From sequence record OZ035743.1: DNA of 64,000 nt. The stretch is one strand, 5' to 3'. Every line of letters begins with the position of its first letter. The stretch's first letter is position 1. The stretch is from Phapecoctavirus DIJ07P1. The notes under the pieces were generated by a model. The model saw only the letters and a program-made list of their open reading frames with translations, made no database searches and was not told where the DNA came from. Both the position numbers and the translations under genes were made by a program. Shown here in pieces: positions 16,373 through 27,485 of the stretch.

Positions 16373-16894
16373 TTAACTCCCCTTTGGTAGATAGAAACCA
16401 TGCACTTTATCTCGATAAACAAGACGCATATCACGCTCCCAGTGTGTCTTTATATTCCGCTTCTTGAAGTATAGAGCACCTTTAGTAACATCTAAAACAG
16501 ACCGCAATTCAGGAAAATGTTTCTCTAAATAAAGTAAACGCTCCGCTATTGCTTTTGCTTCCTGCCACTTATCTTTCTCTGTTACGTTAAAAGTTTTCGC
16601 ATATGAGAATTGCCCTTTCTGGAACAAGACTCCTCTGACTGTGTTAGGAAAGTAGGCATCATTTCTTCTATTGATTACCACATTCCCAACGGCATTCATT
16701 CCTTTTTTACCCAGACCGCGACCTTCTGCGTAAATTGCACAAGCTAATAGAATTTTATCATTATATTGTTTTGTACATTTGTGAACTACTTTAGCGGTTT
16801 TTACGTTTGCAGCTTCGGCTTTCGCCACAACAGGTGTAAATGTAAAAGCAGTTAAGGATAGTAACGCAACTGTTACAAAGTTTTTTATCAGCAA
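16373..16894 (-). CDS. SleB-like cell-wall hydrolase with signal peptide (lysis-enzyme candidate)
   Basis: 173 aa; N-terminal hydrophobic signal ending AKA; resembles SleB/Hydrolase_2 family; own TTGCAA-17-TATACT promoter upstream. Confidence 0.65.
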   Translation of the reverse strand: MLIKNFVTVALLSLTAFTFTPVVAKAEAANVKTAKVVHKCTKQYNDKILLACAIYAEGRGLGKKGMNAVGNVVINRRNDAYFPNTVRGVLFQKGQFSYAKTFNVTEKDKWQEAKAIAERLLYLEKHFPELRSVLDVTKGALYFKKRNIKTHWERDMRLVYRDKVHGFYLPKGS

Positions 16895-16955
16895 ATTTTG
16901 CCTCCTTTTTAAGTTAACGAACTTCTAGTATAACACGATAGAGGCTTTATTGCAA

Positions 16956-16975
16956 GAGGGGGATTTCTCCCCCTC
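16956..16975. terminator. GC hairpin between TerD operon and hydrolase gene
   Basis: gagggggatttctccccctc perfect stem-loop. Confidence 0.5.
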
Positions 16976-16993: not shown

Positions 16994-17596
16994 TTATGGA
17001 CATTCATACCATTCTTTTTTACCACCGAAGGCCATCACCACATCGCAAATATCCAGACCAGCTTTACCTACACCATATGCTTTCAGTTTCCATTCCCCAT
17101 CTTCACGAACCAAGGAAGCCACGTGGCAGATTGTGTTGCCAGCTACTTCAGGAGCCAGGAAGTCAAAATCCAGAATTTCCACATTGCGCTCGGAGTCGAA
17201 GATTTTAAGCATACCTTCAGAAGCATGACCAAAACGTTTCAGACCTGTATCATCATCAATGGTCAGAACAAAGGCAATCTCTTGTGCATCAGGAGAGATT
17301 TTAGCCAGAGTAATATCAATCTGCTCCATGCTGCCAGTTCCATCACGAACATCGTCACCAGCGAAGGTAGAACGTTCAGGATCAAACTTGTTAGCATAGC
17401 AAACCAGATGACGTGCAGACAGCATTTCAGGATTGCCAGCGGCATTGTGACGACAAACCAGTGCACTTACATCCAGATCCAGTTTAGAATCAGATTTCCA
17501 AGAGAATTCCAGGCGCAGTTCTTTCAGAGCCGGAGCAACTTTCTTCAGGGAAATTTTTTCGCTAGAGCCTTTTTTCAGGGAAATTTTATCAGTCAT
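16994..17596 (-). CDS. terD: TerD-domain protein
   Basis: 200 aa; N-terminal repeated ISLKKG/ISLKK and overall TerD-family character. Confidence 0.75.
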   Translation of the reverse strand: MTDKISLKKGSSEKISLKKVAPALKELRLEFSWKSDSKLDLDVSALVCRHNAAGNPEMLSARHLVCYANKFDPERSTFAGDDVRDGTGSMEQIDITLAKISPDAQEIAFVLTIDDDTGLKRFGHASEGMLKIFDSERNVEILDFDFLAPEVAGNTICHVASLVREDGEWKLKAYGVGKAGLDICDVVMAFGGKKEWYECP

Positions 17597-17611
17597 CTTT
17601 TGTCTCCTCTA

Positions 17612-17881
17612 TTATTTAAGTGTAATACCAGTTACAGTCAATTCTACTTCCAAAAGCTTAGATGTGTTTTGGATTGATACTAATTGTGCATGATGGTTTA
17701 GTTCTACAGCAGAATAATCGTTTTCCCCATCATCTACTTTTAAATAAACAATGACTTCACTAAGGTCTAAACCATTTTCGTCAAATGCATTTTCATAGAC
17801 GAAAGTATCTCCTACATCCAAATCCTTAATGGTAAGGCATCGTTTATTTATTTTTTGCTCATCAATTTCGAAGTTTAACAC
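17612..17881 (-). CDS. Small protein, paralogue A (immediately upstream of terD)
   Basis: 89 aa; shares FxI..E / DLG..F.Y / EVxLxVTxITLK blocks with 18903..19181. Confidence 0.6.
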   Translation of the reverse strand: MLNFEIDEQKINKRCLTIKDLDVGDTFVYENAFDENGLDLSEVIVYLKVDDGENDYSAVELNHHAQLVSIQNTSKLLEVELTVTGITLK

Positions 17882-18110
17882 TTCTTCCTCCTAATGTTAT
17901 CTCCGGTTTGTATATACGAAGAATTATAGCATTTTCATTTTCTTTGTCAACCCATTCTTCATAATCAGGCCATACATGAATCTCTACTCTACTTACAATA
18001 TCTTCCATTCGCACAGTCCCAATGAAATACTCTTTGAGACTGCGCATAATGAAAGCTTCTCTCTCGCGCCAATAATTTTCTATGACTTGAGAGGCAAGCT
18101 CGTCGATCAT
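17862..18110 (-). CDS. Hypothetical protein
   Basis: 82-aa ORF. Confidence 0.5.
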   Translation of the reverse strand: MIDELASQVIENYWREREAFIMRSLKEYFIGTVRMEDIVSRVEIHVWPDYEEWVDKENENAIILRIYKPEITLGGRSVKLRN

Positions 18111-18901
18111 TTTTTAGCACCTACTTTAACAACCCACTCTCCGAACTCTTCAGATAAGAGTTTGTCATAAAGCTCTGAATCTGTCAAGTCTAAATCTTTA
18201 ATGCCAATAAAACCAACATTATCATAAGCATTTGCCAGTTCTTTCAGGAAGCCAAACTTCTCATTACCAACGCCAACCATGAACCAATAAATAGGTTTAT
18301 TCTTATTCTCTTCAATAAGACGACGAACAGCACTAGGATCACCATTCTCACCATCCGTCTGGAAGAATACAACACCAGGGGTAACGTCAGCACCTGGTTC
18401 AGACACAGCTACAACCTTTTCACGCTCTACAGATACTGTTTCAGTTTTACCAAGCAGACGATTAAAGAAGCCTTTCTTTGGAGCCTCCTCTTGTACCACT
18501 TGTTTAGTGGTAATATATTTGGTAACAGTGCCAAAATACTCATCGTAGATATCTGCCATTACAGGGGCGTAATTTGTTCCACCTCCGATACGAACATTGC
18601 GCATACATTTACCAACATAGTCATCGTAAACGTCTGCTGTTGCTGGAGTAAGCTCTTGGGAACTCGTATTGAAGGCCCACATATCAATTTGTTGATTATC
18701 GTCGAACAGCATACCAAAAGGAAGCAGTTTACCTACAAAATCACTCACTACCCCACTAGAATATAGACCATGCATACTACCAGAAATATCTAGAGCACAT
18801 GCTACACGAAGAACAATCTTACCTTCATTCAGGTTCTTATTCTTTTTCAGAGAGAAAGCAAGGTTTTCTTGACGTTTTTTCAGGCTGATTTTCTCGGACA
18901 T
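18107..18901 (-). CDS. vWA-domain protein with TerD-like N-terminus (TerY/TerF-like)
   Basis: 264 aa; N-terminal MSEKISLKK...SLKK; MIDAS motif DISGSM (DxSxS). Confidence 0.75.
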   Translation of the reverse strand: MSEKISLKKRQENLAFSLKKNKNLNEGKIVLRVACALDISGSMHGLYSSGVVSDFVGKLLPFGMLFDDNQQIDMWAFNTSSQELTPATADVYDDYVGKCMRNVRIGGGTNYAPVMADIYDEYFGTVTKYITTKQVVQEEAPKKGFFNRLLGKTETVSVEREKVVAVSEPGADVTPGVVFFQTDGENGDPSAVRRLIEENKNKPIYWFMVGVGNEKFGFLKELANAYDNVGFIGIKDLDLTDSELYDKLLSEEFGEWVVKVGAKK

Positions 18902-18902
18902 A

Positions 18903-19181
18903 TTATTTCTCCTTCTTAAGTGTAATATTGGTAACTTCTAAATCTACTTCCACCATATTTGTATCTGGCGGGATGCAATGAGTATAGCCTCGTTGTGCTA
19001 GTGATCCATTAATACAGATCGCACTGTTTGTGGAATTTTTAATGAACACCAAGTTACGGTAGGTATCCAACCCTGCGTCTTCATAGGCATCATAATACAT
19101 GAATGTGGCCCCTATGCCAAGATCTTCGAAAGCAATAGGTAAATCCTGACTTTTTTCTTCTTGAATATTGAATCTAAACAC
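18903..19181 (-). CDS. Small protein, paralogue B (immediately upstream of vWA gene)
   Basis: Paralogous to 17612..17881; start set at GTG after GGAGG RBS (ORF-track ATG at 19247 would overlap upstream gene by 74 nt). Confidence 0.55.
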   Translation of the reverse strand: MFRFNIQEEKSQDLPIAFEDLGIGATFMYYDAYEDAGLDTYRNLVFIKNSTNSAICINGSLAQRGYTHCIPPDTNMVEVDLEVTNITLKKEK

Positions 19182-19737
19182 GCATACCTCCTCTACCAAT
19201 TTTGAAGCCCAAATCGTAAGCTTCCTTAGTGATCTTTTGTAACTCACTTATAGGAAGTGTTACAAGAGGATCATCTTCTTCAATTTCCATCTTGTCATCT
19301 TCTGTTTCAATGAGAGTATTATGCACTTTGTGATAAGGGTTGTCAACACGTTTAAACTTATTCTTTTCTGTGCTGAAAAAACAATCTGGATCTTCTTCAC
19401 CATCACCCCAACCTTGGTTAGGATCTCCGTCAGATTGTTCTGTAGGGATTTCACCTGTAAAATACTCTTCCAGCACCATAGCGATACCGTCCCTTGGATT
19501 TGAGGAATGCATCAAATCACAAACCTTACTCCAATCCATAGCCCATTCGAATCGTTCGCGAACACCATTTTCATCCTCCTTTCCAGAGAAAACACAACCA
19601 TAACTATCATAGTTGCCATACATCTCTTCAATAACAACACCGTCCTTCAAAAGAAAGAGGTAGCAAGGTGATCCGTCGAAAGAAGTAGAAAGGGCAGCTT
19701 TGCCCGATTCTTTGCACAAAAAACTAAAACAACCCAT
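19174..19737 (-). CDS. Hypothetical acidic protein
   Basis: 187-aa ORF. Confidence 0.6.
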   Translation of the reverse strand: MGCFSFLCKESGKAALSTSFDGSPCYLFLLKDGVVIEEMYGNYDSYGCVFSGKEDENGVRERFEWAMDWSKVCDLMHSSNPRDGIAMVLEEYFTGEIPTEQSDGDPNQGWGDGEEDPDCFFSTEKNKFKRVDNPYHKVHNTLIETEDDKMEIEEDDPLVTLPISELQKITKEAYDLGFKIGRGGMRV

Positions 19738-19940
19738 TACAAACCCTCCTTCAGATTATCAAGAGCTACAGTGGTTTCACAAAATTCTCCATAAGCTTTA
19801 TGATGTTCCAGAAAAGCTTCGGGTCCACCCCAGTCATTATCTTGTGTATTCCAACCATCAATAAAAGCATCTTCAATGATTGTGATCAGTTCTTGTCGGG
19901 TTAACTGGATAATATTAGGATCGTTATCGTAGTTAAACAT
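19737..19940 (-). CDS. Hypothetical protein
   Basis: 67-aa ORF. Confidence 0.55.
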   Translation of the reverse strand: MFNYDNDPNIIQLTRQELITIIEDAFIDGWNTQDNDWGGPEAFLEHHKAYGEFCETTVALDNLKEGL

Positions 19941-20106
19941 CTTCTTCCTCCTCTAAAATATGAAACCCGTAATTACAATAGTCCTGAAAGGTTTCGTGCG
20001 CAAGATCTTCTATATCCTCTTGAGACATATCATCTTCAATTTCGATATCCACAACCTCATTGCATCCACACCAAGCAGTTTCAATATTCACTCGTAATAT
20101 TTTCAT
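19936..20106 (-). CDS. Hypothetical small protein (below ORF-track cutoff)
   Basis: about 56-aa ORF read manually (MKILRVNIETAWCGCNEVVD...); ATG overlaps upstream stop. Confidence 0.35.
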
Positions 20107-20303
20107 TACTCCTCCTCCTCATTGAAGTCAATATCTGCAAGGAGTTGGAATTTACGGAAGTTACGACAACCTTCATAAATATAACAATCACGACAAACTG
20201 CTAGAACACTTGGGGGATATATGCCTCCCATCGGTGCGAATCGTTTTTCGTCATCATAACGGACACCAATGTCTTCATCAATTATATAGATACGGATTCT
20301 CAT
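20106..20303 (-). CDS. Hypothetical Cys-containing small protein
   Basis: 65-aa ORF. Confidence 0.5.
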   Translation of the reverse strand: MRIRIYIIDEDIGVRYDDEKRFAPMGGIYPPSVLAVCRDCYIYEGCRNFRKFQLLADIDFNEEEE

Positions 20304-21412
20304 TTACCAAGCCCTCGTTTCACAGCAGCTACCATCCCGTCTTCCAAAGATTGAACTTCATTAATATAATCAACACGAGCAGCACGGGCTTCCGTATTGA
20401 TGCGGTTAGTTTCTTCCAACATCTTAACCAAGTTTTCCTGATCGTGACGCAGAGTTTCAATATCCAACACTTGACGGTTAGCCAGTGCTGCTGCTTCGAT
20501 CTGATTCTGTGTGGCAAGATCGCTACCCAGTTTAATTGCCAGGTTAAATTCATCAAGAACGTTATTCTGCGTCTCTGCTGCTTTCATTTGACGTAAGCTC
20601 TCGATATACATTGAGAAGTTAGCAGAGTAAGCAGGAATAACATTATTTACTATGTTACGCGCAGATCGCATTAAGCTTGCAGAAACTTTTTGCATACCTT
20701 GTACACGCGGTCCCATTTGGACACACAGTAGGCGCAATGCTTTTAAATCTGCAATACGAATCTCCAGAAGATCCAAAGTATCTCGGATCACTTGTCGCTG
20801 TTCTACTGCATCTTCTGGAAGAGCAGCCAAAGCTTGTTCTTCTTTTTCATAGGTTGCTGTTAGAAGCTGCATATCTCGGTTCAAACTTGCAGCATATTGT
20901 CCAATAGCTTGATGTAGCTTTTCAAGATATACCAAGGAATCTTCTTCTTTGCGAATATCCATTTGAAGGTTTTTTACCAACTCTTCAATACGGTTATTAA
21001 CATTATCAAACTCCCCAAACAGATCTTCTTTCATACCCATAACTTTTTTAATGAGTTTAGTAATACCCTTGCTTTGTTTAATAGAGTTTGGATCAAGTTG
21101 TTTTGCCTGTTTAATCAAAGCTGTGAGTCGTTCACTCATCTGATCGCCTTGATTACTACGTTGATGTTTTAATACCTCGGCATTCAAGGAACGCAAGGTT
21201 GTTCCTGCCTCTGCTCCAATCTCTTCGATCTCCTGTCGGGTCATAGAAGGCAAAACTGGAACTTCTTGCGGTGCCGCTGGTGCATAAACAGGACTGGCAT
21301 CTAACACGCTTGGAGCGAATACAGATTTACTTGCATCTGTTGTTGCAGCAAATACGCTCATTTCAGGTTTCTTCTGACAGCCAGTAGCTGCTTTTAAAAA
21401 TGGACTTGTCAT
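20300..21412 (-). CDS. Coiled-coil protein, possibly TelA-like
   Basis: 370 aa, helical/coiled-coil composition; TelA assignment rests only on size, composition and Ter context. Confidence 0.6.
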   Translation of the reverse strand: MTSPFLKAATGCQKKPEMSVFAATTDASKSVFAPSVLDASPVYAPAAPQEVPVLPSMTRQEIEEIGAEAGTTLRSLNAEVLKHQRSNQGDQMSERLTALIKQAKQLDPNSIKQSKGITKLIKKVMGMKEDLFGEFDNVNNRIEELVKNLQMDIRKEEDSLVYLEKLHQAIGQYAASLNRDMQLLTATYEKEEQALAALPEDAVEQRQVIRDTLDLLEIRIADLKALRLLCVQMGPRVQGMQKVSASLMRSARNIVNNVIPAYSANFSMYIESLRQMKAAETQNNVLDEFNLAIKLGSDLATQNQIEAAALANRQVLDIETLRHDQENLVKMLEETNRINTEARAARVDYINEVQSLEDGMVAAVKRGLGK

Positions 21413-21999
21413 TCTTCATTCTCCTCTTCTGCATCTCTTATATATGGTGAAACACCGTACTCTTTAGCTACTTTAACCCAATCGTCCCATTTATACAACC
21501 ATAATTTTCCTTCGGTCCCTTCTTTATCTGATTTCAACCACATATTAGGTTGCTTACCTGGGTACATGCGATTAGGTTTACGATTATAACCTCTAACACA
21601 TCTTGTCGCAAACCTATCTACCAGAACAAGAACATATTTATATTCGTGGTTCAACGGCTCTTTGGAAGTGGCTTTAGGATTAGCCCCTAACTCTGCTGCC
21701 AGTTTTTGCCAATGAGCACCGTGTCTACTAAACTTACCCATACAACCATCAATAGCATGAGCAATTTCGTGCTTCATTGTATCCACGATCATATCTCTTG
21801 TAGAGTTCTTATGCAAGTGCCAATTTACAACAACAATTTTATCTCGGTAGTTGCACCAACCGAAAGAGTTATTCACTTTGTTTCTAACACAAGCTTTATA
21901 TCCTGCTTCACGTAACATGTTGTAGTAAACAGGAAAATCTTCTTTTATTTCCTGCATCACTTCCCACCACAAGAGTTGCAAGTCTCTCTCGGTATACAT
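21409..21999 (-). CDS. SprT-like zinc metalloprotease
   Basis: 196 aa; MKHEIAHAIDG HExxH motif. Confidence 0.65.
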   Translation of the reverse strand: MYTERDLQLLWWEVMQEIKEDFPVYYNMLREAGYKACVRNKVNNSFGWCNYRDKIVVVNWHLHKNSTRDMIVDTMKHEIAHAIDGCMGKFSRHGAHWQKLAAELGANPKATSKEPLNHEYKYVLVLVDRFATRCVRGYNRKPNRMYPGKQPNMWLKSDKEGTEGKLWLYKWDDWVKVAKEYGVSPYIRDAEEENEE

Positions 22000-22002
22000 A
22001 AC

Positions 22003-22596
22003 TTACACCTTAAAAGTGAAATGCGTGGTCGTGGTTTCAAAATCAGGACCAGATAAACGTGCACTGAAATCTGAAATATTTGTAATTAAAAAGCTTTTAT
22101 GCATACCTAACACAGCTACGCTTTCAATATCTTCTACTAACATTTCAATCATGTTAGAAACATGGCTGAACGTAGAGTTTTGTTTTTTGATGGTGTAGAA
22201 AGAAAGATTCCCACCTGCTGTATAAGATACCTCTTCAAAATCTTTAATGGTATATTGTGTGCCATCAGTAAAGAAAATGGTAGCTTTATTAGTAGCACGT
22301 TTCTTGTTTTTTGGTCCTTTTTTACGTTTACTGCGAGTAGGCAAACCGTTTGGGAACACCATAGCTACAAATTCTTCAGCAGAAACCTCCTTACCGAAAT
22401 CATAACCATAAGAAACAGCGTCTATAAACTCGTCATCTTCATTTTTAAAATAATGGAAATAGGGCCAATTTGAGAGATTATCGAGCATCTTATGCTCATC
22501 CACAGCAGAGAACGTATCCCTCAAAGCACGTGTGATTTGCAAAGCATTAGGCAAACTTTTAACACCTGTAATGGAAGTACGAATAGAAATTGTCAT
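22003..22596 (-). CDS. Hypothetical protein
   Basis: 197-aa ORF. Confidence 0.6.
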   Translation of the reverse strand: MTISIRTSITGVKSLPNALQITRALRDTFSAVDEHKMLDNLSNWPYFHYFKNEDDEFIDAVSYGYDFGKEVSAEEFVAMVFPNGLPTRSKRKKGPKNKKRATNKATIFFTDGTQYTIKDFEEVSYTAGGNLSFYTIKKQNSTFSHVSNMIEMLVEDIESVAVLGMHKSFLITNISDFSARLSGPDFETTTTHFTFKV

Positions 22597-22610
22597 TGTT
22601 TTTCTCCTTA

Positions 22611-23048
22611 TTAACGTCGCTTGCTACGAGATGAACTCTTTTTACTTAAAGGGCTATTGTAAGATTTACGAGTTGTATAGCTACTATTTGTTTTAAAAGT
22701 TTGTCTCGGCTTTTCATAAGTTTTTATCTCTTGTTTAGGCTTACTATAAAAATTAGTTTTCGGTTTAGGTGTATTATAATGTTTATTAATAATCGTTCTG
22801 TTATCGTTATAATCCCCACTGCTACGATTACTACCGCCACTCATCATATGCCCTAACAACATACCTGTAGCAAACTCACCAACACCGTTACTACTAGAAC
22901 CGCCACCATTGTTGATAATAGTTGTATCTCCGTCAGATCCTTGTTGAGCGTATTGTTGAGGAGGTTGTTGGTATTGTGCAGGATTTGTTTCATCCTCGCA
23001 AGCTGTTAAAAAGATACAACCAATTAAAATCAGGGCTAGTTTTTTCAT
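22611..23048 (-). CDS. Lipoprotein, Gly/Ser/Gln-rich
   Basis: Start set at MKKLALILIGCIFLTAC (lipobox LTAC); low-complexity mature region. Confidence 0.6.
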   Translation of the reverse strand: MKKLALILIGCIFLTACEDETNPAQYQQPPQQYAQQGSDGDTTIINNGGGSSSNGVGEFATGMLLGHMMSGGSNRSSGDYNDNRTIINKHYNTPKPKTNFYSKPKQEIKTYEKPRQTFKTNSSYTTRKSYNSPLSKKSSSRSKRR

Positions 23049-23231
23049 ATTTGCTTTCCTCGTTTTGGCTATTAATACATCTGTGTTTGAAATCTCCAGA
23101 GAAGCAATAAAGTTGCTCTCCATCTCGGTATAAACTCACTTTACTGCCGTTGATTACGCTTGTCAATACAAAAATTACAACAAACAACCCTATTGCAAAA
23201 CAAATATTTTCAAACACAACCAACAAGTATT

Positions 23232-23582
23232 TCATTTTAAAAATACCTCATCATCAGTTTCATTATCCCAGAAGAACAAGTCCCAACCATTCGGATCATT
23301 CCATTTAGCTGCTGGAGAAGTCCATATTTGCTCGATATCAATATTCAAAACTTCACCGTTTCGTTTTGAAACAGCTTTAGTTAATTCCCAACGGGATACA
23401 GGCTCCACTTCCCCTGAACCACTCCCACAACAAGCTACCACATTAGGAGGCAAATTAATTGGATCTTTGGTCACGATCATAACGCTTACCCCAGGGTAAA
23501 CTTTTGAAAGATAATCTAAAACGTAATCCACATCACCAGATAAATCCCAAACAAGTTCTTGAATTTCATCAAAATTATTCAT
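23232..23582 (-). CDS. Hypothetical protein
   Basis: 116-aa ORF. Confidence 0.6.
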   Translation of the reverse strand: MNNFDEIQELVWDLSGDVDYVLDYLSKVYPGVSVMIVTKDPINLPPNVVACCGSGSGEVEPVSRWELTKAVSKRNGEVLNIDIEQIWTSPAAKWNDPNGWDLFFWDNETDDEVFLK

Positions 23583-23602
23583 AAGTCTCTCCTATAAAAT
23601 AG

Positions 23603-23618
23603 CCTCCCGAAGGAGGCT
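23603..23618 (-). terminator. Hairpin downstream of terC
   Basis: gcctcc-cgaa-ggaggc stem-loop, A/T-rich tail on minus strand. Confidence 0.5.
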
Positions 23619-23624
23619 CATCTA

Positions 23625-24599
23625 TTAAACAGAAGCTTCTTCTTTTTCAGGGAAGATAAAGCTTGCAATAACACCAAGAGATAATGTGCCTAGAACAATC
23701 ATCAGACTTACGTTAGGGGAAATATCATGCGGGAGGAATGACCACTTGGCATGAAGTGTTTCACCGAACGGGTGATACATAAGTTTAGCACCAACAAACA
23801 CCAGAACCACAGCAACAGCTTTCTCTAAGTGAACCAGATATTTCACAGCTACACTTAACACAAAGAAAAGTGCACGTAAACCAAGAACAGCCATCAGCAT
23901 TGCAGAATAAACTAGCAGAGGTTCTTGTGTCACACCGATCACAGCCGGAACTGAATCAAAAGAGAAGACAATATCTGTAAGCTCAATAACAAACACACAA
24001 AGAAGAGCAGGAGTTGCATATTTAATACCATTCTTAATGGTGATGAACTTTTCACCATCCAGTGCATTGTGCACAGGCAGAACTTTACCTACTAAACGAA
24101 CAGCCCAATGTTTAGAGTAATCAATATCCTCTTCTTCGTCACCACCTTTGATGATAGCCACGGCAGACCAAGCTACAATCAAACCGAACAACACTTGGAC
24201 CGACCAATGAAGGTTAAACAAAGCGGTCCCTGCTGCAACAAAAATACCTCGGAAGACAATGGCTCCTGCAATCCCCCAAAGTAGAATCTTATGTTGGAGA
24301 TGTGTGCTCTTAATTCCAAAGCTTGCAAAAATTGCCATGAACACCATTAGGTTATCTACAGAAAGACTCTTTTCCAACACATAGCCACTTAGGAAAAGCG
24401 CGGCAAACTCTTTACCATGTTCTACCCAAATGAATGCGTAATACCCTAAAGCTAAAGCAATCCAAAAAACAGACCAAAGCAAAGCAGATTTAATTCCAAT
24501 TTCTTTATTCTCTTTATGACCAAAGAAATCGATACCAATAGACAATGCCAAAATACCAACTAAAACAACTACATCAATAATTGGGAAACCGAGTTGCAT
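23625..24599 (-). CDS. terC: TerC-family integral membrane protein
   Basis: 324 aa, multiple hydrophobic segments; EKSLSVDN matches TerC signature. Confidence 0.8.
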   Translation of the reverse strand: MQLGFPIIDVVVLVGILALSIGIDFFGHKENKEIGIKSALLWSVFWIALALGYYAFIWVEHGKEFAALFLSGYVLEKSLSVDNLMVFMAIFASFGIKSTHLQHKILLWGIAGAIVFRGIFVAAGTALFNLHWSVQVLFGLIVAWSAVAIIKGGDEEEDIDYSKHWAVRLVGKVLPVHNALDGEKFITIKNGIKYATPALLCVFVIELTDIVFSFDSVPAVIGVTQEPLLVYSAMLMAVLGLRALFFVLSVAVKYLVHLEKAVAVVLVFVGAKLMYHPFGETLHAKWSFLPHDISPNVSLMIVLGTLSLGVIASFIFPEKEEASV

Positions 24600-24616
24600 T
24601 CTTTTCTCCTCTCTCT

Positions 24617-24677
24617 GCGGGGGAACTATTCCCCCGCTTCATGTGATATATCTTACTCTTTTTAAGAACTATGTCAA
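24617..24677 (-). promoter_or_regulatory. Promoter-leader cassette driving terC (TTGACA-16-TAAGAT plus 5' leader hairpin)
   Basis: Minus strand reads TTGACA-tagttcttaaaaagag-TAAGAT-atatcacatgaa-GCGGGGGAATAGTTCCCCCGC-agagagaggagaaaag-ATG; same architecture as the 46.5-52.7 kb array. Confidence 0.7.
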
Positions 24678-24680
24678 CAC

Positions 24681-24902
24681 TTATTTTGTTGAATGAGAGG
24701 AAAAGATTCCTCGTAATACCGCCAGAATAAACGAAACACAAACCACGGTCCAGAAGGTTACTGGGACAGTGATATCTGCATGACCCATAACTTCAGCAAC
24801 ATAGTTGTAAGCCAGCAACAGTAACCAAGCTGGAATCAAACTAAGCATAAAAGCAATAACAAAAAAGCTTACCACTGCAACAATACCTGCAAAAACACCC
24901 AT
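24681..24902 (-). CDS. Small membrane protein
   Basis: 73 aa, two hydrophobic segments. Confidence 0.5.
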   Translation of the reverse strand: MGVFAGIVAVVSFFVIAFMLSLIPAWLLLLAYNYVAEVMGHADITVPVTFWTVVCVSFILAVLRGIFSSHSTK

Positions 24903-24914
24903 ACTAATCTCCTC

Positions 24915-25388
24915 TTAAAGTTTATAAATAGTCACATCGTGACCTGTTTTTACTAAAGTTTCTTCAATCATCACTTGGATGATAGCCCAATTACCTCCAG
25001 CATATCCAGCGCCAATCATAGGTAAGCCGATCTTACATTTTTGGTCACGGAGAAGCAAATCATTAGCCATAGCTATTAGTGCATCGTAAAGTGCATCATA
25101 GTCCAACTGACGACCTTTAGCATTGTATCCGTAACGGTATTGCCCGTATAGATTATATACCAAAGGGTCTGATTGTTCGTCTGGCACCCCTAAACTAAAA
25201 GAACCTAACTTACTTTGATCACCAGCCATTGTGTCTAAATCTGCCGCATATGCATAAGGGAATGCTCGTTTAATTTGCGGAGCAATTCCTGCTCCCATAT
25301 TACACATACAATTGCAACAATGAGCAATAACAGTTACTTCACCTGCTTTAGCGGCATCAATAAGATTACCTGTTTTCATTTTAAGCAT
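24915..25388 (-). CDS. Macro-domain protein (ADP-ribose binding/processing)
   Basis: GNLIDAAKAGEVTVIAHCCNCMCNMGAGIA and IGLPMIGAGYAGG blocks resemble macro-domain motifs; start set at Met after AAGGAG RBS. Confidence 0.65.
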   Translation of the reverse strand: MLKMKTGNLIDAAKAGEVTVIAHCCNCMCNMGAGIAPQIKRAFPYAYAADLDTMAGDQSKLGSFSLGVPDEQSDPLVYNLYGQYRYGYNAKGRQLDYDALYDALIAMANDLLLRDQKCKIGLPMIGAGYAGGNWAIIQVMIEETLVKTGHDVTIYKL

Positions 25389-25401
25389 TTTTAGCTCCTT
25401 A

Positions 25402-26229
25402 TTACAGAATGTGTTGTTTTGTGTAACGATCCAAGAATTCAAAGTTTTCAGCATACTTTGAAATTCGGTTGTAACCTTCTCCCAAACATCCGAAGAAAAG
25501 TTGCTCTACATAGTAGTGTGGCAATTGGCTAAGAATGATTTTGAAGTCTTCGTGATTTTGGCCCATAAGATACTTAATAGGACGAACAAGACACTGTGCA
25601 TCACGTTCTTCATTAATCATTTTAACAAACGCTTCTGGTGTATTGATGTAGTTAAAATTCAGTTTAGCTTCAGTATCTGCTTGATTACCTTCATATTTTG
25701 CAAAATACAAGAAGTAAACATCATTTTTAACTTGATTTTCATCAAGAATCTCAATCAGTTTGTCTTCATGAGTTCCGGTGATATTTACATCATCAATGAA
25801 CACAAGCTTCTTATCACCCCAGAATTCTTTGTTGCAGTAGAATGTATCCCCATCAATAAGTTTCTTACGACTAGCTTTATCCAAGAAACCATAATCGTTG
25901 ATATAGCTAACTTTACGATGAATAATATCCAGTTCTGCTGAACGACCTTGATCATATTGTGCTTGCAACATATTAAAGTAATTAATAAAATGATCTGTCA
26001 TCATTGTTGCAGCATTGTGCACATGGTTATAAGGAGAAGGGATGATAACAAATTGTTCCCCAATATGTTTCATTGCCACTTGAGCAAAAAACTGAAGTGC
26101 CAATTCTTTACCCATACGACGCGCAGCTTGGTTACTACCAAATTTCAATTTTGAATAGTCTTTGATATCAAAAGTAGCAGTTTCCAGGTCATCAAATTTA
26201 TTTGCAAAAATTTGAGTTTGATTACGCAT
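25402..26229 (-). CDS. Phosphoribosyltransferase-like (PRTase) protein
   Basis: 275 aa; KLVFIDDVNITGTHEDKL resembles PRPP-binding loop. Confidence 0.55.
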   Translation of the reverse strand: MRNQTQIFANKFDDLETATFDIKDYSKLKFGSNQAARRMGKELALQFFAQVAMKHIGEQFVIIPSPYNHVHNAATMMTDHFINYFNMLQAQYDQGRSAELDIIHRKVSYINDYGFLDKASRKKLIDGDTFYCNKEFWGDKKLVFIDDVNITGTHEDKLIEILDENQVKNDVYFLYFAKYEGNQADTEAKLNFNYINTPEAFVKMINEERDAQCLVRPIKYLMGQNHEDFKIILSQLPHYYVEQLFFGCLGEGYNRISKYAENFEFLDRYTKQHIL

Positions 26230-26899
26230 TTACAATTTCTCCTCTTTTAAGTTTCTCTAGTAAGTCGTTAGGGTTCTTAATATGACAGAAGTTAATCCCT
26301 ATGTCAACACATTTACCATCAAATTCTTCGCTGTCCCCAACATGTAAAATCTCTTCAGCCTTCAAAGGAATGCTTGAATATGTGGCGGTCCTAACAAAGA
26401 ATCTAGGATCTGGTTTACATAACAGATGTTCGTCTGAAAAATGCATAAATTCAAAACAATTCCAACTGTCGAACATACAAGCACGACGCAAAATATCCCC
26501 AGATATAAAATTAGTATTGCTTTTAATACTAAGATCATATTTACCAGACAAGTATAGCAAACAAACTGGCAAATCTAAAGCGATATGTGGAGGAAATTTA
26601 AGAAACCATTGCTCACACTCAAAACGCATTTGTGCAGATTCTACAGGGGTTAAACCTATCTTTCTTCCCAACATATTCCATGCATATGCTACACCTTCTG
26701 CACACCCATTTAGTGCAGCATTATCCATAATTTCTTTGGCATCTTTATATGCTTCTTTTGCCGCACGTTCAGACATTCTACCATATGTAGCAATAGTGTG
26801 CGTACGTGCATCTGCATAGTTTTGATTGGCAGAAATAAGAGTATTCCATACATCAAAAGAAATATGTTTTATTGTCATACTAGGCCCACCACGCATCAA
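26222..26899 (-). CDS. HAD-like hydrolase (non-canonical motif I)
   Basis: ISFDVWNTLI (DxWxT in place of DxDxT) and ILHVGDSEEFDG (motif IV-like); true start may be Met at 26878. Confidence 0.55.
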   Translation of the reverse strand: MMRGGPSMTIKHISFDVWNTLISANQNYADARTHTIATYGRMSERAAKEAYKDAKEIMDNAALNGCAEGVAYAWNMLGRKIGLTPVESAQMRFECEQWFLKFPPHIALDLPVCLLYLSGKYDLSIKSNTNFISGDILRRACMFDSWNCFEFMHFSDEHLLCKPDPRFFVRTATYSSIPLKAEEILHVGDSEEFDGKCVDIGINFCHIKNPNDLLEKLKRGEIVNA

Positions 26900-27485
26900 G
26901 ATTTAAGTTACTGTCTACCACAACTTGTTCTATGTGGTAGCCTTTTATCTGTATCCCACTGTTCAAGAGCATATCATACGCTTCATTGAAACGCAACTTA
27001 TCTTCTGCGGAATATAAGCGAGCATTATAAAATCGGTAATCAATTTCTTCAGCATTAGAAGAAATACGGAAGAAGTTTGTTTCTACTTCGGGATCACTTG
27101 CTGAAGTCTTAATGTGAACTTCTCCATAATTTTCTTTACTTAGATCCATGAAAAGAACACAGGCAACATGTTTAAACATTCGTTCCAGTTTGTAACGAAC
27201 AACATTGAAACCTGCATTCTCAAGTTTTTCTACACACTGCAACATTAAAGTAGTGTCGAGATCGCTTTGATACTTTGTTAACATACGATCACGTTGAGAC
27301 TTTGTATCCCGATGTAAATCAATTGTTGTGCATTTGGCACCAATAATCTTAGCTGCTTTCATCAACTCTTCAGAACTAACGTTAGATAAAGTAAGATGAA
27401 AATGGGCTTTCCACACTTTTTTAGCAGGGACACCAAAAGATTTATCCCCACTATTCGGCATGTTGACTACTACACTATGTTGCAT
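26880..27485 (-). CDS. Hypothetical protein
   Basis: 201 aa; one HxTx element (HLTL) but no second, so 2H phosphoesterase not supported. Confidence 0.55.
   Translation of the reverse strand: MQHSVVVNMPNSGDKSFGVPAKKVWKAHFHLTLSNVSSEELMKAAKIIGAKCTTIDLHRDTKSQRDRMLTKYQSDLDTTLMLQCVEKLENAGFNVVRYKLERMFKHVACVLFMDLSKENYGEVHIKTSASDPEVETNFFRISSNAEEIDYRFYNARLYSAEDKLRFNEAYDMLLNSGIQIKGYHIEQVVVDSNLNLDAWWA

Follow-up and report, generated by a model that had tools for sequence, protein, structure and literature searches.

A duplicated family of small, predicted SH3-like proteins as a putative accessory component of the Ter-type module in Phapecoctavirus and related phages

In a stretch of 64,000 nucleotides from Phapecoctavirus DIJ07P1 (OZ035743.1), which was analysed as a whole and is here called the window, 2 small genes, A and B, encode paralogous proteins located immediately upstream of the genes for a TerD-domain protein and a vWA-TerF-like protein, respectively. 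Both proteins belong to phrog_11278, a PHROG family of unknown function that carries no annotation. The family is best explained, on the basis of sequence comparisons, as a small, phage-only accessory component of the Ter-type module in Stephanstirmvirinae-like myoviruses of about 150 kb. Within this frame, the reading that we favour, with a probability of roughly 0.4, is that A and B are lineage-specific, dispensable and probably sub-stoichiometric adaptors or regulatory partners of the phage vWA-TerF-like and TerD pair, which have been duplicated in Phapecoctavirus with a possible specialization of B with vWA and of A with TerD. The features at the centre of the analysis are the following.

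19318..19346, minus strand: promoter-like site upstream of B, 11 of 12 positions
18903..19181, minus strand: small protein B, 92 amino acids, phrog_11278, predicted SH3-like β-barrel
18107..18901, minus strand: vWA-TerF-like protein, 264 amino acids, PF10138 at residues 31-260
17862..18110, minus strand: open reading frame (ORF) of 82 amino acids, phrog_22387, which carries the promoter of A and TerD in its coding sequence
17923..17950, minus strand: predicted sigma-70 promoter of A and TerD, perfect consensus with extended -10
17612..17881, minus strand: small protein A, 89 amino acids, first cistron of the A-TerD unit, paralogue of B, phrog_11278
16994..17596, minus strand: TerD-domain protein, 200 amino acids, PF02342, E = 3e-28
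16956..16975, minus strand: GC-rich hairpin, -17 kcal/mol, z = -3.1

The genes for A (17881..17612) and B (19181..18903) both start with GTG, and each start codon is preceded at a distance of 5 nt by a strong Shine-Dalgarno sequence, AGGAGG before the GTG at 17881 and GGAGG before the GTG at 19181. Both coding sequences are also present, as hypothetical proteins, in the annotation of phage ESCO13. A previous reading of the window, here referred to as the sequence-only reading, had described 2 related small proteins with shared motif blocks, and had proposed pairwise alignment and structure prediction as checks. This description was borne out: the ORFs and the motif blocks were present, and the alignment of A with B was significant and free of gaps, with 30% identity and 49% positives over 89 residues (BLASTP, E = 5e-12). 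Judged by this comparison, A and B are true paralogues, with a similarity that far exceeds chance.

Full-length matches to phrog_11278 were obtained for A (E = 3.8e-44, residues 1-89) and for B (E = 1.7e-49, residues 1-92), and distant metagenomic relatives matched the same family with E-values of 1e-6 to 1e-22. A hidden Markov model (HMM) of the family identified exactly 2 copies, A and B, among the 645 six-frame ORFs of the window, the next best match having an E-value of 0.26. The 82-amino-acid ORF located between the genes for A and vWA was considered as a degenerate third copy, but was ruled out by the lack of a match to the family HMM and by its placement in a separate PHROG family, phrog_22387. 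Searches with the single sequences of A or B reached near-identical phage proteins only, and a profile was needed to detect the remote members of the family. Conservation at the amino acid level, including invariant motif positions, was found to hold across lineages that are only 22% to 36% identical in sequence; in all, 14 or more diverged lineages were identified, and F27, G37-L38-D39, K48, and N58 are among the conserved residues. In Pfam, no family was found for A or B at E ≤ 0.1 except for a spurious match to DUF5006, and a search of the PDB sequences with the family profile yielded no relative (best E = 0.16, which is noise). Weak profile matches of the family were obtained to phrog_7832 and phrog_10911 (E-values of 1e-4 to 3e-3). 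Because the ratios of nonsynonymous to synonymous substitution rates (dN/dS) were 0.25 to 0.42, A and B are, by this measure, genuine protein-coding genes under purifying selection.

It was further observed that A and TerD are located in one and the same frame (17596-17881), parted by TAA TAG and four codons, as is also the case in phiWec179 and not in L016, which is probably coincidental. The 2 genes are 285 nt apart in the window, and because L016 lacks the common frame, a read-through fusion of A and TerD was rejected as a conserved feature.

The window is about 99% identical in sequence to phAPEC8-like coliphages such as Mt1B1_P17, tuntematon, and ESCO13, which belong to the genus Phapecoctavirus in the subfamily Stephanstirmvirinae. 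Members of the family were identified by tblastn in 126 phage records, and those of the records whose taxonomy was looked up all belong to Stephanstirmvirinae except PsgM04F, which has no assigned subfamily. When 1.8 billion representative proteins were searched exhaustively with the profile (HMMER), 19 genuine clusters were obtained, including 16 full-length stand-alone proteins of 87 to 93 amino acids and 3 fragments, along with one spurious FN3-repeat match; no fusions of the family were found in this search. Several of the phage records carry unexpected host names, such as "Campylobacter phage" (B15, C3, A150, A110a), "Acinetobacter phage vB_AbaM_ABPW7", and "Pseudomonas phage PsgM04F", and these are Stephanstirmvirinae-type genomes. 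Some of them are up to 99% identical to the coliphage region, and the labels may reflect contamination or mis-assignment.

The genomic context was read for nearly every cluster, at 20+ related loci. At all loci read, the members of the family were located inside the vWA..TerD block, in 0 to 2 copies, and nowhere else. The small gene was always separated from the following gene by 35 nt or less, frequently with an overlap, and the gene content of the interval between TelA and vWA changes between lineages. Four arrangements were distinguished, of which the order vWA-small-TerD was the most common among the relatives.

B-vWA-ORF of about 81 amino acids-A-TerD: the window, ESCO13, phiWec179, PsgM04F, and the metagenomic loci L014-L017
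B-vWA-TerD: phi92 (Justusliebigvirus) and Klebsiella phage 05F01 (L002, L003)
vWA-small-TerD: L007, L009, L010, L018, L019, L020, L024, and L025
vWA-small-small-TerD, with the small genes in tandem: L011, L012, and L013

Justusliebigvirus (phi92) and 05F01 thus have a single copy before vWA and none directly before TerD. A neighbour-joining tree contained a clade of the B proteins encoded before vWA and a clade of the Phapecoctavirus A proteins, with a modest bootstrap support of 64% to 66%. Given these clades and the order vWA-small-TerD in the outgroup, the ancestral order was probably vWA-small-TerD, and the weakly supported tree suggests that B is a duplicate that moved upstream of vWA, followed by loss of the copy before TerD in Justusliebigvirus and 05F01. 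In L018, which represents a distant relative, a gene for a Band_7 (SPFH/stomatin-like) protein, another membrane-associated scaffold protein in a phage Ter block, was found to be inserted directly after TerD (2095-2574).

On the minus strand, at 17950..17923, the sequence TTGACA-16 nt-TGcTATAAT represents a perfect sigma-70 consensus with an extended -10 element, located within the 82-amino-acid ORF, 41 nt upstream of the start of A. It is the only perfect match to the sigma-70 consensus in the window, where about 0.09 would be expected by chance. All 12 hexamer positions as well as the TG are retained at the same place in phiWec179, PsgM04F, and L016, whereas the ORF that hosts the promoter shows only about 67% to 68% nucleotide identity between the window and phiWec179 or L016. 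In L010, L018, and L011, the small gene is preceded by a near-consensus promoter at a distance of about 57 nt. At the other end of the unit, the hairpin GAGGGGGA-GAAA-UCCCCCUC, with a GAAA tetraloop, is located 18 nt past the stop codon of TerD. No U-tract follows the hairpin, which is likely to be the 3' end or a stabilizer of the A-TerD transcript. Because of the conserved perfect promoter and the hairpin after the TerD stop codon, A and TerD look like a self-contained, strongly transcribed early unit. Directly after the hairpin, a promoter-like site for the cell-wall hydrolase gene was noted at 16955..16927.

For B, a promoter-like site (TTGACA-17 nt-CATAAT, 11 of 12 positions) was found 136 nt upstream of the start, inside a gene for a protein of 187 amino acids, and was also present in phi92; this constitutes weaker evidence than the promoter of A and TerD.

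The sequence-only reading had placed each small gene directly before a TerD-type gene, as a duplicated two-gene unit. The adjacency was confirmed: the stop codon of A is located 15 nt ahead of the TerD ATG, and that of B is 1 nt ahead of the vWA ATG, with the Shine-Dalgarno sequence of vWA sitting within the last codons of B (C-terminal KKEK). The gene downstream of A is a TerD gene, with a PF02342 match at residues 5-179 of 98.9 bits against a gathering cut-off of 25.3. The gene downstream of B, in contrast, is not of the TerD type. Its sole Pfam match is to PF10138 (vWA-TerF-like), with 130 bits and starting from residue 31, and the protein contains the DxSxS motif (DISGS) of a metal-ion-dependent adhesion site (MIDAS). 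It has no match to PF02342, and its N-terminal 30 residues alone have no Pfam match. Since vWA and TerD are not homologous, the proposed unit dissolves and the small gene alone has been duplicated. The 82-amino-acid ORF, which shares 4 nt with vWA and 20 nt with A, was found in 2-copy genomes only.

The likeness of the vWA protein to TerD is confined to the first approximately 25 residues (BLASTP, E = 0.013 over 29 residues), where the vWA protein begins with MSEKISLKKRQENLAFSLKK and TerD with MTDKISLKKGSSEKISLKK. Residues 1-30 of the vWA protein form an N-terminal extension outside the Pfam domain, with a TerD-like "KISLKK…SLKK" motif. This motif is retained at the N-terminus of both vWA and TerD in every lineage examined, including the phages without a small gene, and it is therefore a property of these vWA proteins rather than evidence of a TerD domain. 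The extension may derive from a TerF-type fusion of TerD and vWA, or it may serve both proteins as a motif for interaction or assembly. In the window (18812-18901) and in L002, L003, L007, L010, L011, and L021-L023 it follows the pattern "xKISLKKRxExLxxSLKK", which mimics the N-terminal hairpin of the TerD domain.

Structure prediction with AlphaFold2 gave models of A with a predicted local distance difference test score (pLDDT) of 88 and a predicted TM-score (pTM) of 0.80, and of B with a pLDDT of 83 and a pTM of 0.72. The models are alike in the order of their secondary structure elements, one short helix and five strands, in agreement with the paralogy. By an SH3-like fold we mean a small, approximately five-stranded barrel that can be superposed on known domains of the SH3-like, KOW, Tudor, or FeoA type, and the models of both A and B are of this kind. 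The top match of the B model in BFVD was the phAPEC8 copy of A (TM 0.74 to 0.76), while other small, uncharacterized SH3-like phage proteins in BFVD matched with Foldseek E-values of 2e-3 or weaker. The proteins of the family are acidic and probably cytoplasmic, with isoelectric points (pI) of 4.3 to 5.5 (4.3 for A and 4.5 for B), and neither a signal peptide nor a membrane segment was evident in the family upon inspection by eye. Binding of nucleic acids, as in KOW and Tudor domains, was judged unlikely because of these low pI values. The most natural reading is that of an adaptor or regulator that works through protein-protein contacts.

A and B would thus be small adaptors or regulators that putatively bind the vWA-TerF-like protein, the TerD protein, or both, and that could modulate the assembly of vWA and TerD or couple them to a variable target. 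In the 2-copy phages, the copies may have specialized, with translational coupling linking B to vWA and co-transcription linking A to TerD. The rates of evolution and the codon usage of these genes were as follows.

A and B: dN/dS 0.25-0.42; CTG at 0/12 and 0/7 leucine codons
TerD: dN/dS 0-0.06; CTG at 17/19 leucine codons; frequency of optimal codons (Fop) 0.67
vWA: dN/dS 0-0.08; CTG at 8/21 leucine codons
TelA: dN/dS 0.02-0.09; CTG at 7/41 leucine codons

The codon bias of TerD is of the E. coli type, with a Fop of 0.67 compared to 0.39 to 0.54 in the neighbouring genes, which suggests very high expression or a recent acquisition from a host-like source. Because A and B have GTG starts and non-optimal codons whereas TerD is highly codon-optimized, the quantities of A and B in the cell are probably far below that of TerD.

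Several observations weigh against a role for A and B as partners of the vWA and TerD pair. The vWA-TerF-like gene was identified in 209 phage records and the small gene in only 126. Even at E ≤ 1 with the filters off, the family HMM detected no member in KP13-26 and KP13-16, 2 Klebsiella phages of Stephanstirmvirinae, or in the Caulobacter phage CcrPW, all of which carry both vWA and TerD. All of the contexts stem from a single broad phage lineage with common synteny (TelA..vWA..TerD..Hydrolase_2), so that part of the conserved adjacency may be due to common descent. The predicted fold is generic, being common to dozens of unrelated, uncharacterized small phage proteins. Between lineages, the dN of A and B is 6 to 8 times that of TerD, and the codon usage differs sharply from that of TerD. 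On the comparative evidence, the small protein is tightly tied to the vWA-TerD pair yet dispensable for that pair, as relatives keep vWA and TerD without the small gene.

Several of these observations also feed the main competing explanation, which is that A and B are independent, fast-evolving early effectors, for example in host takeover, anti-defence, or superinfection, that merely co-travel in the vWA/TerD operon. An independent effector would fit with dN/dS values well above the 0 to 0.08 of the neighbouring genes, with a copy number that varies from 0 to 2 among related phages, with a codon usage unlike that of TerD, and with a small β-barrel of a widespread kind; moreover, the region contains several more small, lineage-variable ORFs. 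Those surrounding small ORFs turn over, however, whereas the family is confined to the vWA..TerD block in 20+ loci, and its tandem or relocated duplicates have remained inside that block. Nor would a mere co-traveller be expected to share a conserved consensus promoter with TerD, or to have its stop codon interlocked with the Shine-Dalgarno sequence of vWA, as is the case for B. We consider the effector explanation somewhat unlikely, and retain the adaptor or regulatory partner as the preferred reading.

A bolder form of the partner hypothesis is that the small proteins are docking or specificity subunits that physically organize the phage Ter module, and that their fast evolution reflects an arms race against a target in the host or a competitor that varies. 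In one version, A and B would recognize the "KISLKK…SLKK" N-terminal hairpin motif that is common to vWA and TerD, and in another the conserved, exposed Gly-Leu-Asp loop (residues 37-39) would serve as an acidic ligand for the MIDAS metal site of vWA. We regard this proposal as speculative and improbable, but if true it would show for the first time, in concrete terms, how proteins of a Ter system are wired to one another.

The role offered by the sequence-only reading, that of a dedicated partner or chaperone for TerD-fold proteins, was upheld only in so far as a functional link is concerned, in that members occur only in the vWA..TerD block and A shares a conserved promoter with TerD. In its strict form, each small protein would be dedicated to one TerD-fold protein, either as a chaperone for its folding or as an obligate partner, giving a duplicated chaperone-client pair. 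Such a pairing is suggested by the location of A directly upstream of TerD, by the TerD-like N-terminus of the protein encoded directly downstream of B, and by the predominance of the order vWA-small-TerD in relatives. The putative client of B is, however, a vWA domain protein with no more than about 25 TerD-like residues, phi92 and 05F01 lack a copy in the position just ahead of TerD, and KP13-26, KP13-16, and CcrPW manage with TerD and vWA, including the N-terminal motif, and no family member at all. Only 19 clusters of the family were obtained from 1.8 billion representatives, whereas TerD domains occur widely in bacteria (Ter system summarized in PMC7824862). Finally, TerD is 90% to 91% identical between lineages in which A is only 45% to 47% identical, as exemplified by the comparison of the window with phiWec179 (91% for TerD and 45% for A). 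A dedicated chaperone for TerD-fold proteins is therefore a poor fit, and we consider it quite unlikely. A further idea, that the ORFs are leader cistrons that act as RNA or translation devices coupling ribosomes to vWA and TerD, their peptides being unimportant, draws on the very short or overlapping junctions and the vWA Shine-Dalgarno sequence inside the last codons of B, but is very improbable in view of the invariant positions across lineages of 22% to 36% identity, dN/dS values below 0.5, and the confident, concordant fold predictions for A and B.

Ter clusters, with TerC, TerD, TelA, and vWA, occur widely in bacteria, on plasmids, and in large phages, and have been linked to resistance against tellurite, phages, and colicins. 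We know of no molecular mechanism that has been worked out for Ter systems. We defined a Ter-type cluster as co-located TerC, TelA, vWA-TerF-like, and TerD genes, with or without PRTase and HAD enzymes, following the component list in PMC7824862, and in the window all four are co-located, along with PRTase_3 and a weak HAD match (Pfam). The minus strand carries every gene surrounding A and B, including the remaining features of the region listed below.

26222..26899, minus strand: HAD hydrolase, weak match (Pfam)
25402..26229, minus strand: PRTase_3 (ComF-like) (Pfam)
24915..25454, minus strand: Macro (Pfam)
23625..24599, minus strand: TerC (Pfam)
21409..21999, minus strand: SprT-like metallopeptidase (Pfam)
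20300..21412, minus strand: TelA (Pfam)
19933-20106, minus strand: ORF of 57 amino acids between TelA and B, match to phrog_1997
16373..16894, minus strand: cell-wall hydrolase (Pfam)

With TelA, the SprT-like protein, TerC, Macro, PRTase_3, and the weak HAD match, the rest of the phage Ter module (20300-27485) points to the making or processing of a nucleotide-like metabolite, as has been proposed for bacterial Ter systems. The 57-amino-acid ORF showed a match to DUF7167 near the threshold (E = 7.5e-5, 23.2 bits against a cut-off of 24.4), and the same weak domain was seen at the equivalent position in L014, L016, and L017. When A, B, TerD, vWA, TelA, and TerC were compared with the known anti-phage defence components in PADLOC-DB, none of them had a match at E ≤ 0.01.

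The genes for A and B are already known as hypothetical proteins and as phrog_11278, and so is the Ter cluster in phages: such clusters have been described in large phages, and it has been proposed that they help these phages to compete against superinfecting ones (PMC7824862; PMC8386662, on a Klebsiella phage). We found no paper in the literature that mentions the small phrog_11278 family or its linkage to vWA and TerD. What is new here is a Ter module with an extra small, predicted SH3-like component, which is a real but modest finding. Its value is that of a lead rather than a discovery, the proteins being lineage-restricted, dispensable in relatives, and putative in function. Because its members are small, tractable, linked in the genome to vWA and TerD, and predicted to be transcribed together with TerD from a consensus early promoter, the family nonetheless offers a cheap experimental handle on the assembly of Ter systems and on their use by phages.

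Among known systems, the closest functional analogy to A and B is FeoA, which is likewise small, SH3-like, and encoded upstream of its partner. A and B are not members of the FeoA family (PF04023): their only Pfam match at E ≤ 0.1 is the spurious one to DUF5006, and they neighbour vWA and TerD rather than feoB. The C-terminal SH3-like domain of DtxR, IdeR, and MntR is, like FeoA, a small SH3-like partner-binding module of metal-homeostasis systems, and also ranks among the closest known systems. Other small SH3-like phage proteins (BFVD; phrog_7832 and phrog_10911) are similar to A and B in size and fold but only marginally similar in sequence. The family phrog_11278 itself holds both A and B over their full lengths, but neither their paralogy within a genome nor their strict linkage to the vWA..TerD block is recorded there. 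As in the bacterial Ter system, the window contains TerC, TelA, vWA-TerF-like, TerD, PRTase_3, and HAD-like components (component set, including phages, in PMC7824862, section 3.4.10). The bacterial TerF protein consists of a TerD domain fused to a C-terminal vWA domain, whereas the phage has separate genes, first vWA and then TerD. A small SH3-like protein is not included among the Ter components in PMC7824862, and it is one or two copies of such a protein that the phage module adds.

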